Shown here in pieces: positions 8,865 to 60,408 of a stretch of DNA of 64,000 nt (the first letter of the stretch is position 1; the number at the start of each line of letters is the position of its first letter). Origin of the DNA: Octopus vulgaris (taxonomy: Eukaryota); NCBI GenBank assembly GCA_951406725.2, contig OX597835.1, forward strand, positions 19,530,001 to 19,594,000. Direction: 5' to 3'. The notes below the pieces were generated by a model. That model saw nothing but the letters and a program-made list of their open reading frames with translations. It was not told where the DNA came from and did no database searches. The position numbers were made by a program, and so were the translations under genes.

Positions 8865-9600
8865 ATGTGTCTGTGTCTGTGTCTGTGTGTGTACGTACGC
8901 GTGTGTGTTTGTGCACATGCGTATGTGTTTGCATATATATTATATATAGGTTCTGTTATTTCAACACCTTCCGGCTGTATGCCAGTACAATCATGCTCAA
9001 AAGCAAATCGAAAATGTGCACATAAAAATCAAAGAGAGTAAAAAAAAAACACATTGCAATTCTCAGTGCAACGACAATAGATATTGGATTGCATCTATGT
9101 CCTTCAGATGCACATTCATATATAGTGGATATAGTGGATGTTTGCATTATTTTTTGCCATACATATCGATGCTACAGAGCTTGTCAATTACCAGTAGGTC
9201 ATCATGTTGCTAGCTAGAAGCGCTTACATATACTGCTGCCATTGTCCCAGAAATATGTCACAAAATGGTCTTAAATTCTGTTCAATTGCTATTATCTCTT
9301 CCTTCTGCATGCCCTCACTCACTCTCACTCTCTCTCTCTCTCTATCTGTCTCTCTTTCTGTCTTCTTCGTCTCCTGTTCATGTTCTTTCTCTCTGTGCTG
9401 TTTTACAGGCATAATCAAAATTGAAGTATAGCACAGTATCTTTTATGTTGCGTATAAAATGTTTTCGCAGCGACTCACACCTCCATCTTTCATTTTCGTT
9501 CTCTTTCTTTCCTTCTCTCCACTGTATCTTATCTTGGTCATTTATTCGCTGGCCTTTCTGTTTTTATCTCTCCTTATTCTGTTTATTGTTGTTGTTGTTT

Positions 9601-9738
9601 GTATTCAGGTTACTGCTTGGAATCGAACTCGGAATCTCGGGGTTAGTAGCCCGCACTCTTAACCACTACGCCATATGCCCACAGGCATGGGCATATGGTG
9701 TAGATTCCGAGTTCGATTCCAAGCAGTGACCTGAACAC
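9601..9738. mobile_element. Head-to-head palindromic pair of tRNA-derived (Pol III) heads
   Basis: Left arm reverse complement gggcatatggcgtagtggttaagagtgcgggctactaaccccgagattccgagttcgattccaagcagtaacctgaa (A and B boxes); right arm is the same with an internal deletion; 8-nt spacer. Confidence 0.8.
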
Positions 9739-9745
9739 TAGCAGA

Positions 9746-9836
<91 letters not shown>

Positions 9837-9856
9837 TTAATAATAATAACAACAAC
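9746..9856. repeat. (TAA)n microsatellite
   Basis: Directly visible. Confidence 0.95.
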
Positions 9857-9900
9857 GAAAAATACCTTAGGAATGAGAACTCAGGTTCGAAATTTCCCAA

Positions 9901-9946
9901 GACATCTGAAGAAGTCTGGAGGGTATATTAGCCGAAACGTTGTGTT
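9901..9946 (+). ncRNA. Minimal hammerhead ribozyme motif
   Basis: gacat-CTGAAGA-a-gtctgg..ttagcc-GAAA-cgtt-gtgtt; palindromic AACGTT stem III; one mismatch in stem II. Confidence 0.6.
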
Positions 9947-11563
9947 AACAACAAACAAGATGAGGACAAATATCTGTCGAGTAAAAAATAACGTAAATAA
10001 TGTAAATACAAGGAAGCTGAAATAATGTTTATCGCCAATTCAACATTGCTGTCTCGCAGAACCTGATGTTACTGCCGTTTTTAATCCGAGAAAGACACCT
10101 CTGCCAGTTGGTTATCGATGCAATATGCGCCCGGTCCAATATATGTTGTAAGAAGGAGAGCGAACCTCCACCATTTTCCACTGTTGCTAGAACCATCAAA
10201 TCATCCGGTTTCGCGCTGTTTGTGCTGATTCTCAGTGGTGGCAACCAGTCCCCTATAGATATCTGTATTTTGACACTAGCCCGCAATATATTGAAAAATA
10301 ACTAATAACTAGTCACTGATCTTGCAACAAGCAAAGAATCTTGTCAGATGAAAGTTGAGATTAGAGCTATCAAAAATTTGCTTTTAAATATGACGAAGAT
10401 AATAATTGCTGGTTCAGTCAAACTCCCCCAAAACCCAAATATTAAATACGAAACATTGTTGTCATTGATATCGCCCACATCACGAGAAATATTCACTCAA
10501 ATCCGAAATGTCTGAATCTCACAAAAACTTTCGAGATGGCAAATATTACAGGAAAGTTTTACTGAAATTCTTATTCTCAGTATTTTGGTCTCCTTTTTCT
10601 GTCACACACGCTCGCTACTTTGAAATCACAACCATAGTAAAATGTCCAATAGACTGTTGCTTCCGGTCACTAAGTGAGACTTGGAAAATCTTTTATAGAA
10701 CAGTAAAATGCTAAAGAAAACAATGTCTGATAAAATGAAAGCAGCAGCAGAGGATAGGGGTGAGTTATAAGTACTTAAGGATATTGGACATGGAAAACTA
10801 ATGGAAGTGGACTTGCACAAACTGAGACTAATGGAAGATGGACTTGGTCTCAAGTAAAAATTTAATGGACGGAATGAGATTGAAGCTACTAAGTCATGGA
10901 AGTTCAATCCTTAGATATGAAGCAGAGGGTAAATTACGTTGAAGATCGACGGTGTTTAGATCCAAAGACAAGCAAGTTATTTATAAGACATGGGATATTT
11001 CCCCCTAAGAATGATATAGACACATTAACTACCGAGGAAAAGTGGCGGAAGAGGCCTAACTGGGTGCGAACAGTATTGGGCCAGAATTAATCGTGACTGC
11101 TCGTAGATCTTGTTGCTGTTATAGCAATGCCTGACACACTGGCGGTGCGGGTCGCCTTTTTTTTCCTTTTATTTTTATTTTGTTACCTGAGCAGAACGCC
11201 AGCAGGTGATACATCATTCCAAATACATGACATCTGATTCGCCTGTCTTCCAACGTTCTAATCTGTTGTGTATGTTGTCTAAAGAACATTACCTGCGCAG
11301 TCGGTATGGACGATGTTTACTTCCATTGGAACTAGAGGAAAAGAATGACTGTGCACAGGATGGTAGGGGTAGCAGAATGAGCCTCCCGCCTTTTATTGTA
11401 GCAAGACGGAGGAGCTAAGCTGGAAGCCAGGAAGAGATGATGGTCACTGCTGCTGACATACCTGTGATCATTGGATACCGCGTGATGATATCAAAATCCT
11501 CCTGACCAAATTTGCTGTCACTTCGGTGAGTCGAAGTCAAGCACCTTCTACCTGTAAAAAGTT

Positions 11564-23367: not shown

Positions 23368-23930
23368 CAGCGAGATTGCGTAGTCGTTAGCACGTCGGGC
23401 GTAATGCTTAGCAGTATTTCGTCTGCCGTTACGTTGTGAGTTCAAATTCCGCCGAAGTCGACTTTGCCTTTCATCATTTCGGGGTCGATTAAATAAGTAC
23501 CAGTTATGCACTGGGGTCGATATAATCGACTTAATCCGTTTGTCTGTTCTTGTTTGTCCCCTCTGTGTTTAGCCCCTTGTGGGTAGTAATGAAATAGGTA
23601 TTTCGCCCGTCGCTTCATTCTAAAATCAAATACCGCCGAATTCGACTTTGCCTTTCATCCTTTCGGGGTCGATTAAATAAGTACCAGTTATGCACTGGTG
23701 TCGATATAATCGACTTAATCCGTTTGTCTGTTCTTGTGTGTCCCCTCTGTGTTTAGCCCCTTGTGGGTAGTAAAGAAATAGGTATTCCGCCCGCCGCTTC
23801 ATTCTAAAATCAAATACCGCCGAGGTCGACTTTGCCTTTCATCCTCTCGGGGTCGATTAATTAAGTACCAGTGAATCAACTATACCCATCCCCCAAATTT
23901 CAGGCCTTGTGTCTTTAGTAGAAAGGATTA
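23368..23930 (+). mobile_element. SINE family A, one head + three tandem core units + terminal tail
   Basis: Core repeats at ~23450, ~23635 and ~23818; ends ccccaaatttcaggccttgtg..agaaaggatt; imperfect TSD attatgc(t/a)cac. Confidence 0.85.
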
Positions 23931-27095: not shown

Positions 27096-27301
27096 TATAT
27101 ATGCTGGCATTGCCCTTTAGCAACTTAAAGAAGGAACCATTCATTTTTAACGAAGTTACCACGTGTTATTCTGTTAAACCTTTGGTACATTTCTACTTGA
27201 AATAATATATCACTTGTTGGCGACCAAAGATCAAGTCTTAAGAAATGTACTGATTGTAGACCAACCGTAAGTGTCGGTGATAACTATACAACTTTGTTGA
27301 A

Positions 27302-27700
27302 GACGGTGAGCTGGCAGAGTTGATAGCACGCTTGACAAAATGCTTAGCGGTATTTCGTCTGCCGTTACGTTCTGAGTTCAAATTCCGCCGAGGTCGACTT
27401 TGCCTTTCATCCTTACGGGGTCGATAAATTAAAGTACCAGTTACGCACTGGGGTCGATGTAATCGACTTAATACCTATGTCTGTCCTTGTTTGTCCCTTC
27501 TATGTTTAGCCCCTTGTGGTAATAAAGAAATAGGTATTTTGCTTGTCGCTACGTTGTGAGCTCAAATTCCTCCGAGGTCTACTTTGCCTTTCATCCTTTC
27601 GGCGTGGATAAATTAAGTACCAGTAAAATACTGGGGTCGATGTAATCGATTATCCCCCTCTCCCAAATTTCAGGTTTTTTGCCTAGAGTAGGGATGATAA
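27302..27700 (+). mobile_element. SINE family A, dimeric
   Basis: Head, two core units and cccaaatttcagg..tgcctagagtag tail. Confidence 0.85.
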
Positions 27701-39057: not shown

Positions 39058-39600
39058 CTAGTTGTAGTAGTAATAATGCCATCATGCAGTACCTGGCAGT
39101 GGCTCTCATGATGGACTGAGGCCGTACCAGGCAGTGAGTTCAAGTTCCTCACTTCCTGGCATGTAGTGTTCTAGATCAAAACCCTTCATTTCATGTTGTT
39201 CTTGTAGCGACGCAATGTTTCCTCCGAGTGTTTCCTCCGACTAAATATGTCACGGCAGGATTTGCACACTGACCTTGTAAGCCATCACCAGCAACGACTC
39301 CCGAATGGAGACTCATGTGCTGGATCCCTGTCGCTCAAGTGTAGAAAAGGTGCCATTCGTCAGGTGAATGCAGCAACGCGCCTTTATAGCGCATACACTT
39401 ATACTACAACCACCATATTTTTTTTTACCCTTGAACGTCGGATATATGATATATCGAAACAGGAGGAAAGAAAGTATTTACACGATGCGCTACTATTACT
39501 ATTACACGAGACTCAACGCTCTGTATCAACGGCTCACAGTGAACTGCTTACCAAACCGAAGTGCCAATCGGTCACATTTCTTTACTTTATAATAATGAGT

Positions 39601-39983
39601 GTGGAGGCGCAATGGCCCAGTGGTTAGGGCAGCGGACTCGCGGTCGTAGAATCGCGGTTTCGATTCCCAGACCGGGCGTTGTGAGTGTTTATTGAGCGAA
39701 AACACCTAAAGCTCCACGAGGCTCCGGCAGGGGATGGTGGTGATCCCTGCTGTACTCATTCACCACAACTTTCTCTCACACTTACTTCCTGATTCTGTTG
39801 TACCTGTATTTCAAAGGGCCGGCCTTGTCACTCTCTGTGTGACGCTGAATATCCCCGAGAACTACGTTAAGGGTACACGTGTCTGTGGAGTGCTCAGCCA
39901 CTTACACGTTAATTTCACGAGCAGGCTGTTCCGTTGATCGGATCAACTGGAACCCTCGGCGTCGTAACCGACGGAGTGCTTCC
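39601..39983 (+). mobile_element. SINE family C (tRNA-like head, possibly OR1/OR2-type), full length
   Basis: A box tggcccagtgg and B box gtttcgattcc; TSD aataatgagt (39591-39600 and 39984-39993); twin copy at 52637. Confidence 0.9.
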
Positions 39984-40111
39984 AATAATGAGTCTGTCCA
40001 CCTTTAGTCACTCGGTGAGAGAAGCAAAATCCTTCCACAACCATATTCCTTAAATATTGTAAACAAACTTTACGACCAGGATCAGGATGTTTTTAATCGT
40101 GATCTATTGTT

Positions 40112-50686: not shown

Positions 50687-51327
50687 GATTACAGTAAACA
50701 AAACTGACAAAGGCGATGATTAAGACAAAGAAAATGCGGAGGAATATTCTGTTTCCACAGTTATTGTTTCTTTCAGTAATGAGGATGAGGAAGAAAAAGA
50801 AGAAGAAGAGGTAAAGGAGGAAGATGTGGAGGAAGGGAAGGAGGAGCTGGAGGAGGAAGCAAAGTAAGAGCTGATTGTAATGATGACTATCACGTCGACA
50901 ACGACTAGGCTGGTAGCTTTCCTGAGCACTCACAATTTTACATACAATCACATAGAGTACGTGTATTTGCCCTTTATTTATTCTGAGTTCTAATATTTCC
51001 TCTCGCTTCTTGTTTCGTATGTAAAGTATGTAATATTAATAATCAATTCACAAAAGAATTATCTTTCTCTTTCAATATTTTCAACGTTATAACTTGAAAC
51101 AGTTCTTCATTTGATATAGTGGAGGGAAATATAAACCTAAAAATAACACAAAAAATCTAAAAGAAAACACACGTTTCGATAAATTTAAGATTTAAATATG
51201 AAATTCCAGTAATTTTCACTGTCCTTGTCAACATATGCCACATCGAATTTATTGTGCATAAGAATTTATTATCTATAAGTATTTACTGAGAGCTAAAGAG
51301 GTTAAAAGAATATTTTAATGGTTTTAT

Positions 51328-51744
51328 GGAGTGGCTGTGTGGTAAGTAGCTTGCCTACCAACCACATGGTTCTGGGTTCAGTCCCACTGCGTGGCATCTT
51401 AGGCAAGTGTCTTCTGCTATAGCCTCGGGCCGACCAATGCCTTGTGAGTGGATTTGGTAGACGGAAACTGAAAGAAGCCCGTCGTATATATGTATATATA
51501 TATGTGTGTACGTGTGTGTGTATGTTTGTGTGTCTGTGTTTGTCCCCCTAGCACTGCTTGACAACCGATGCTGCTGTGTTTACGTCCCCGTAACTTAGCG
51601 GTTCGGCAAAAGAGACCGATAGAATAAGTACTGGGCTTACAAAGAATAAGTCCCGGGGTCGATTTGCTCGACTAAAGGCGGTGTTCCAGCATGGCCGCAG
51701 TCAAATGACTGAAACAACTAAAAGAGTAAAAGAGTAAAAGAGTA
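51328..51744 (+). mobile_element. SINE family B
   Basis: Near-consensus copy. Confidence 0.9.
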
Positions 51745-51870
51745 ATATTTCGATGGGCGAAGTGCAAAAGTGAAATGTGTCCTTGAGTAACTGGGTGGTA
51801 TTTGCCAGAAAAAATTTAAGTCGAGATAAAAGAAATCAAATCAATTTTCGCAATGCAGGCTTGATTTCAG

Positions 51871-52097
51871 TTACTCTCTTTACTCTTTTACTCTTTTACT
51901 TGTTTCAGTCATTTGACTGCGGCCATGCTGGAGCACCGCCTTCAGTCGAGCAAATCGACCCCGAGACTTATTCTTTGTAAGCCCAGTACTTATTCAATCG
52001 GTCTCTTTTGCCGAACCGCTAAGTGACGGGGACGTAAACACACCAGCATCGGTTGTCAAGCAATGCTGGGGGGACAAACACAGACAAACAAACATAT

Positions 52098-52172
<75 letters not shown>

Positions 52173-52338
52173 TACGACAGGCTTCTTCCAGTTTCCGTCT
52201 ACCAAATCCTCTCACAAGGCATTGGTCGGCCCGGGGCTATAGCAGAAGACACTTGCCCAAGATGCCACGCAGTGGGACTGAACCCGGAACCATGTGGCTG
52301 GTTAGCAAGCTACCTACCACACAGTCACTCCTGCGCCT
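51871..52338 (-). mobile_element. SINE family B, inverted relative to the 51328 copy
   Basis: Near-consensus reverse complement. Confidence 0.9.
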
Positions 52339-52636
52339 ATATTATTTACCAAATCACTAAATTATTTTTCTCTTGGGCATTATAATTAGAAACCTTACAC
52401 ACATAGGTAACATGTATAGGACTGTAAACAATAGTCCATTCACTGGAAATGTAACTGCTAGTAGATAAGAATAACGAACCACGCACCATAAGTTAGCCAA
52501 CATTGCAACGATTCAGACTTTTCTTTTGTGTGAGAAGGATCCGTAGTCATACCCGTTTGTTGTTTTCACCTCTGTATCGTTACGCCCTCCTATAAACACG
52601 AGAGGTACTGCATTTACTATTCTTTATATAAAATAT

Positions 52637-59857: not shown

Positions 59858-60010
59858 GTTATTATTATTATTTTTATTAATATGATTATCATTATTATTC
59901 ATTCTTAATGAAACTACAAGCTCTCTCGTATGCCCACGTTTGTAATGCTTTTACTACAGGTGTTCATTTGCAATGATCTAATAGGTAAGATAATATCATT
60001 ATCACCACAA

Positions 60011-60408
60011 GGCGGCGAGCTGGCAGAAACGTTAGCACGCCGAGCGAAATGCTTAGAGGTATTTCGTCTGTCTTCACGTCCTGAGTTCAAATTATTCCGA
60101 GATCGACTTTACCTTTCATCCTTTCGGGGTCGATAAATTAAGTACCAGTTACGCACTGGAGTCGATATAACCGACTTAATCCGTTTTTCTGTCCTTGTTT
60201 GTCCTCTCTGTGTTTAGCCCTATGTGGGTAGTAAAGAAATAGGTATCTTGTCTGTTTTCACGTCCTGAGTTCAAATTCCGCCGAGGTCGACTTTACCTTT
60301 CATCCTTTCGGGGTCTATAAAGTAAGTACCAGTTGTGTACTGGTGGCGATCTGATCGACTGGCCTCTGCCACCCAAATTACGGGCCTTGTGACCACAGTA
60401 GAAAAGAA
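60011..60408 (+). mobile_element. SINE family A, dimeric
   Basis: Head, two cores and cccaaattacgggccttgtg tail. Confidence 0.85.

Follow-up and report, generated by a model that had tools for sequence, protein, structure and literature searches.

Solo end repeats with tRNA-like heads in the Octopus vulgaris genome, probably derived from a Penelope/Poseidon-type retrotransposon

In the window analyzed here, a stretch of 64,000 nt of Octopus vulgaris DNA (contig OX597835.1), the feature at positions 9586 to 10008 is best read, with a probability of about 0.6, as a decayed head-to-head insertion of two pLTR (pseudo-LTR) copies of a Penelope/Poseidon-type retrotransposon. In the pLTR, a tRNA-like head is followed by an (AAT/AAC)n linker and then by the first 55 codons of the open reading frame (ORF) of the element itself, among which lies a minimal hammerhead motif; the Pol III-type boxes internal to the head are the likely promoter of the pLTR. 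This anatomy is directly visible in the window copy, whose parts are listed below; the A and B boxes are presumptive, having been assigned from the box consensus.

9586..9600, minus strand: short (AAC)n linker of the left arm, an arm without a hammerhead tail (sequence; locus L031)
9601..9680, minus strand: left arm, full tRNA-like pLTR head (z up to 7.8 relative to shuffles, against host tRNA-Arg(TCT))
9663..9673, minus strand: A box of the left head, equivalent to tRNA positions 8-18 (sequence, box consensus)
9619..9630, minus strand: B box of the left head (sequence, box consensus)
9681..9688, no strand: center of the palindrome, a remnant of the short self-complementary pLTR 5' end plus a 6-nt duplication (sequence)
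9689..9738, plus strand: head of the right arm, with a 30-nt deletion (head positions 16-45) that cuts the A box and leaves the B box intact (sequence)
9746..9849, plus strand: (AAT)n linker, of a length that varies among copies
9850..10008, plus strand: pLTR tail, stopping at the "short" 3' end of the family, without the 30-nt extension
9873..10008, plus strand: first codons of a Penelope-type ORF, with the ATG at 9873 and, in the window copy, a frameshift after codon 9
9901..9946, plus strand: minimal type I hammerhead motif (stem I of 5 bp, stem II of 6 bp, no stem III), decayed; motif type after the available part of PMC4209133

An earlier sequence-only reading had described this arrangement, and we find its components in place: an inverted complete head (9680-9601) and a forward head with a deletion (9689-9738) lie head-to-head, followed by the (TAA)n tract, our (AAT)n linker, and the minimal hammerhead at 9901-9946. 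The center of the palindrome is of a type that recurs in many family copies. Upon folding, the head region forms a single long hairpin (z = -14), which had been taken for a component of the element and is instead a product of insertion. The left tail is absent from the window copy, and no target duplication was seen around the insert. The hammerhead cores are CTGAAGA at 9906 and GAAA at 9934, with a predicted cut after 9941; owing to decay (a U-C mismatch and extra G-U pairs), the minimum-energy fold of the window motif is no longer a hammerhead, unlike that of the family majority, which consists of stems I and II with unpaired cores and no stem III. By both motif and fold, the family majority has the minimal hammerhead form that occurs in the pLTRs of Penelope-like elements (PLEs) and that, in the available part of PMC4209133, is presumed to work as a dimer and to be of low activity. 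Because insertion of Poseidon_Ac in vitro does not need cleavage (PMC11167929), ribozyme processing of the octopus RNA is putative.

Other repeats in and near the window bear some likeness to this copy. A second minimal hammerhead motif (43746, minus strand) belongs to a different repeat family and adjoins (TA)n, and three abundant repeat families of 390-430 nt (1565-2000, 23385-23872, 27300-27691, 39575-39984, 51327-52342, 60009-60401, and others) include two with tRNA-like heads that loosely resemble the pLTR head. About 35 kb before the window, locus L095 (G000:C22:19503848-19504131) holds a second copy with the same 6-nt duplication and 30-nt deletion junction; it is inverted, is 91.5% identical over 284 nt to window positions 9575-9852, and has 12 nt of left flank in common with the window copy, beyond which the flanks show no homology; it looks like a local templated copy between microsatellites.

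The head is related to tRNA. When compared with 35 host tRNA-like sequences, sampled from 7 amino-acid types, it aligned far above shuffles and best to tRNA-Arg(TCT) (z of 7.1-7.8), and it matched a host tRNA profile at an E value of 0.0016, bearing out the tRNA ancestry for which the sequence-only reading had proposed this comparison. With its A and B boxes, the unit has a tRNA-related head of the kind found in tRNA-derived SINEs. Rfam and ARAGORN returned no match for the head or the ribozyme, the head falling below their thresholds.

Searched singly, the tail and the head each gave thousands of candidate matches across the genome. The 35-letter ribozyme core has 2,121 exact genome matches (0 for the control), and because the exact core pattern is present in just 8 of 127 tails chosen without that pattern, we estimate a total of roughly 34,000 arms; copies are about 4% diverged from the family majority. 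The stretch is also present in sequencing runs under five organism labels; no RNA run is among the indexed ones that contain it, which says nothing about expression. For the layout of the family, we used a position-ordered set consisting of 90 of the first 100 listed core matches in chromosome order, from which one duplicate was dropped to leave 89 loci (three loci from one segmental duplication are retained). The head lies upstream in 72 of these 89 hammerhead-anchored loci and downstream in none, and when loci are anchored on the head, the tail lies downstream of it in 24 of 29. The co-occurrence at fixed order and orientation that had been set as a test is therefore found from both ends, and the inverted segment, the frequency of which was likewise to be checked, is present on the 5' side in 56 of the 89 loci. 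Another 11 loci have neither a head nor an inversion, and several of these have another element within the (AAT)n linker. At nine loci (L007, L123, L128, L141, L146, L149, L161, L145, and L171), LINE-like 3' ends, which we take to be Dong/R4-like, and another SINE-like repeat are inserted in the linker and split the head from the tail.

The source of the pLTR was reached through fragments of PLE-type reverse transcriptase (RT) that lie upstream of a few copies. In a search with the 3' end of the ORF, from which the head was excluded, the ORF stop was followed by a 29-nt leader and then by the head in 29 of the 30 loci, among which are two triplets of duplicates. All 30 loci found with a distant protein were of the same family; 19 of them extend to the stop codon, and 18 of these run on into the head. 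In a search with the 5' part of the ORF, the tail was continuous with the ORF in 6 of 30 loci. This link is an observed one. The majority of 42 fragments reads as one open frame of 835 codons that begins inside the tail, and the tail, far from being "unique" as originally described, is the start of a retrotransposon ORF (its first 55 codons) and matches thousands of places in the genome.

The RT domain was recognized in a natural copy (L272) as Pfam RVT_1 with an E value of 5.5e-10, and the DKG and YVDD motifs are present. The C-terminal domain aligns to two proteins that bear PF01541 (GIY-YIG; P0200 and P0214), with a C..C/H/H pattern and a motif that reads VY...YKG; Pfam missed the GIY-YIG domain in two natural copies. 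A single ORF combining a PLE-type RT with a C-terminal GIY-YIG domain is the constitution of an EN+ PLE, and a pLTR both before and after the ORF, the partial-tandem form of such elements, was seen in L289 and L312. There is no Zn-finger linker between RT and EN, and the RT falls outside the Neptune clade at 100/100. By this architecture, as set out in the available part of PMC8557442, the element would fit within the Penelope/Poseidon clade, the tree having been built without a named reference sequence. None of the single copies fetched has an intact ORF, and the longest natural open stretch noted among the loci scanned for one is of 465 codons.

Neptune-type families, which emerged from a Pfam search for GIY-YIG partners, were rejected as the partner, as they share no tail with the unit. 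One of them, a young family found at L091-L094 and many other places, retains an intact frame of 781 codons, overlapped by a second frame that lies upstream; close to the 3' end of this family is a core resembling that of a hammerhead (TTGATAA...GAAAC), after which comes (AT)n. Proteins 60-78% identical to the ORF of the octopus element are present in public assemblies (P0122-P0125 and related). Penelope-type ORFs also occur in contigs labeled as bacterial MAGs (L396-L404), most likely through host contamination.

The fixed order and the link between ORF and head together rule out the circumstance on which the sequence-only reading was said to fail, namely that an unrelated tRNA-SINE and a Penelope remnant were nested by chance in one (TAA)n tract. 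Although (AAT)n tracts here do attract other elements, chance nesting has to contend with an order and orientation that hold in most loci, with a head that is never downstream and sits at a fixed 29 nt behind the ORF, and with target duplications common to both arms (see below), and we give it next to no credence.

The inserts themselves carry the signatures of a Penelope element. Among the 89 loci, 3' ends are observed to fall into two classes some 30 nt apart (47 long and 38 short), and in 50 of 51 two-armed inserts of this position-ordered set, the 30-nt extension is present on exactly one arm (on neither in 1 and on both in 0; p = 1e-13); two inserts in which both arms are long (L019 and L049) are known among loci chosen otherwise than by position order. 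Direct repeats of at least 10 nt flank 23 of 74 inserts, compared with 0.8% of 600 shuffled pairs, and target duplications span 8-17 nt; from these repeats, the two arms are seen to be the result of one insertion event. An inverted 5' copy combined with a 30-40 bp tail at one end is the form expected of a PLE, and the frequency of inversion among the 89 loci upholds the earlier treatment of the inverted 5' segment as a Penelope signature, as well as the proposal that Penelope machinery moved the unit: a Penelope enzyme is the likely mover.

Paired arms agree at three non-CpG variant sites more often than expected (24/28, 52/67, and 57/70, compared with 15, 37, and 41.5; 0 of 2,000 shuffles at each), although the arms of one insert are otherwise as diverged as unrelated copies. 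This excess of agreement indicates that most inserts derive from one RNA or one source locus. About a fifth of the arm pairs disagree at variant sites in the tail, however, and one template cannot therefore account for every insert.

Few copies extend into the body of the element. There are 4,276 exact matches to the end of the tail, compared with 41 to the tail-to-ORF junction, and since about 99% of long-ended copies end at the first 55 codons of the ORF, most copies are solo pLTRs. At the end of the tail, read depth falls several hundred-fold in three other data sets (contig depths being rough). Measured into the ORF, one class of 3' ends falls at about 116-140 nt and the other at 161-168 nt. 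At approximately 19 of the 41 junction loci, as read by eye, a segment from deeper in the ORF stands before the tail; these jumps from the tail onto more distal ORF sequence indicate that the templates ran past the tail.

The sequence-only reading had interpreted the unit as a separate SINE with a borrowed tail. A SINE of that kind is non-autonomous and shares only its 3' tail with its partner, whereas here the coding element contains the entire unit, with its head: 29 of 30 ORF 3' ends enter the head, and short and ORF-linked copies have variants in common. It could still be that the short copies form a true separate lineage, in which solo copies act as Pol III source genes and use Penelope protein in trans. 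A full head and tail would hold both a promoter and the RT start sites, and short copies outnumber ORF-linked ones by about 100:1 (by several hundred in the read depth of the three other data sets). They are also somewhat less diverged (3.5%, compared with 4.9% for ORF-linked copies), but the lower value is biased by the choice of exact core matches. Against such a lineage, each of the three main haplotypes is represented among both short copies (18/7/6 of 38) and ORF-linked ones (13/7/3 of 34), and no variants are private to short copies, on which basis no separate SINE lineage was found; moreover, the approximately 19 of 41 junction loci come from templates extending beyond the tail, and an unsystematic look at short copies revealed no transduced flank. 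We consider a separate lineage improbable. An enrichment of particular haplotypes in short copies was only apparent, in that it arose from loci picked by their likeness to the window copy and was gone in the position-ordered set.

Solo pLTRs are more likely by-products of insertion by the Penelope element itself. In Poseidon_Ac, reverse transcription is initiated internally on the RNA, at two closely spaced sites where the ORF begins, and extends both target strands in vitro (PMC11167929). By analogy, an RNA that we infer to start within about 10 nt of the head and to run into the ORF would be the template in octopus; the GIY-YIG nuclease would leave a stagger of 8-17 nt between its cuts in the two target strands, and the RT of the element would begin at two internal sites, located about 116-140 and 161-168 nt from the ORF start. 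We further infer an order of priming in which extension begins at the distal site on one strand and at the proximal site on the other, both extensions usually being templated by the same RNA or by RNAs of the same source, after which the two cDNAs would join at their 5' ends. Priming so near the 5' end of the RNA would yield a short solo pLTR and nothing more.

The ends and composition of the copies bear on which polymerase would produce this RNA. A pile-up of 5' ends at the head is observed: 54 of 91 head-bearing arms start no more than 10 nt from its first base and 10 reach more than 40 nt upstream, which amounts to about 2.7 ends per nt near the head and at most 0.02 per nt at 41-300 nt upstream (the peak at -7, with 15 of the 91 arms, is partly produced by the palindromic, self-complementary 5' end). 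TTTT is absent from the entire 2,555-nt element, when codon shuffling predicts 2.9 occurrences for the ORF (P = 0.03), and is present at least three times in 36 of 37 related ORFs from other organisms. Together with the A box at tRNA positions 8-18 and the B box, these features support reading by Pol III. It is weakened by a Markov P value of only 0.08 for the lack of TTTT, by the similar absence of GGGG, by a TATAA that begins 34 nt upstream of the head, and by L317, the closest metagenome relative, which has no TTTT in its ORF of about 2 kb and yet no tRNA-like head. Across 88 related loci from metagenome and genome collections, no tRNA-like head was detected in the pLTR region (the lone tRNA-like match, in L357, is in the flank), and a hammerhead-like motif is on the sense strand in only 30. 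Also against Pol III, in pooled RNA-seq from another species label, head and tail reads are equal on both strands, 89% of them run into unlike sequence, and there is no pile-up of starts or ends.

The same Penelope element and the same mechanism of insertion could also depend on Pol II transcription that starts from the TATAA or from some other promoter of that type, with the head as a passenger captured once in the 3' UTR. In ORF-linked copies, the TATAA overlaps the ORF stop codon and lies 27-32 nt before the commonest 5' ends, a position that fits a Pol II start equally well. A capped coding RNA is also easier to translate, L317 shows that a TTTT-free ORF can exist without a head, and for the pLTRs of other PLEs, promoter motifs of the Pol II type have been reported (available parts of PMC3846280 and PMC2377424). 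What tells against Pol II is that the 5' end is exactly where the head sits, both of its boxes being in tRNA register, and that the pLTR itself is TTTT-free, unlike the 3' UTR of L317. In addition, the ORF-linked upstream repeats that have a head lack the TATAA, because their 5' end is at -8 or downstream in 7 of 7. Transcription by Pol II is, in our assessment, unlikely, if a real contender. To judge from sequence features, the head is probably a working Pol III promoter for at least short RNAs. The larger proposition is doubtful and advanced only tentatively: that the whole 2.7-kb RNA of an autonomous coding retrotransposon would be made by Pol III from a captured tRNA promoter, with all TTTT purged and SINE-like solo ends mass-produced through internal RT initiation.

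Several known systems share parts of this organization. The Poseidon_Ac element of Anolis carolinensis (PMC11167929) similarly has a single ORF with an RT plus a GIY-YIG at its C terminus, a hammerhead that overlaps the ORF start, and two internal RT start sites that set an optional tail; its description mentions neither a tRNA-derived head nor a Pol III promoter, and the octopus element differs further in having its ATG upstream of the ribozyme and in that solo pLTRs make up about 99% of copies. As far as the available part of PMC3846280 goes, Pen2a, Pen2, and Pen3a of Adineta vaga have direct and inverted pLTRs that include the first ORF codons, solo pLTRs, a 31-bp tail on one inverted pLTR, target duplications of 8-10 bp, and palindromes at pLTR 5' ends, but they differ in their putative TATA/Inr promoter and few copies, with no tRNA-like head reported. 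The head-to-head layout with a one-sided tail is, by the available part of PMC8557442, also general for PLEs.

Short repeats in which a type I hammerhead comes after a Pol III-type promoter are found in schistosomes (Sm-alpha/Sj-alpha); in the part of PMC6765202 at hand, these are tandem and noncoding, have a canonical hammerhead, and have no autonomous partner named, whereas the octopus unit belongs to a coding PLE and its copies are dispersed and head-to-head. Metazoan non-LTR retrozymes are likewise short hammerhead repeats akin to PLE pLTRs, for which PLE enzymes have been proposed, but they are defined by tandem arrays that give circular RNA (PMC7229834, available part; bioRxiv 10.64898/2026.07.22.740005). 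The octopus family has a tRNA-like head and is not tandem, a further tail lying downstream in only 2 of the 89 loci. Finally, the tRNA-headed LTR elements Helenus and Ajax and the 5S-headed Cassandra have small-RNA-derived sequence inside the terminal repeat (PMC10886601, available part); these are nonautonomous LTR elements, in contrast to a PLE with its own ORF.

We found no description of a PLE whose pLTR begins with a tRNA-derived head in the literature searched, Repbase, Dfam, and subscription papers being outside the search. PMC13282606 gives class totals only, and its supplement names no Poseidon or hammerhead; the family may already be in its TE library under a generic label, and related consensus sequences may be present in the supplements of bioRxiv 10.64898/2026.07.22.740005, PMC8557442, and PMC4209133. 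Already known are the association of a Pol III promoter with a hammerhead (schistosome repeats, in the available part of PMC6765202) and short elements derived from PLEs (retrozymes).

The octopus copies indicate that a Penelope element can give rise to a SINE-like family from its own end repeat, without a separate SINE gene. They also provide genome-scale support for two internal RT start sites, until now based on in vitro work with one element, in that 50 of 51 inserts pair a long arm with a short one, the two mostly deriving from a shared template. Tens of thousands of such copies could be mislabeled as SINEs by automatic pipelines. If the head is a working Pol III promoter, it would be a kind of promoter that we have not found described for a PLE, and the element would possibly be a coding retroelement read by Pol III.
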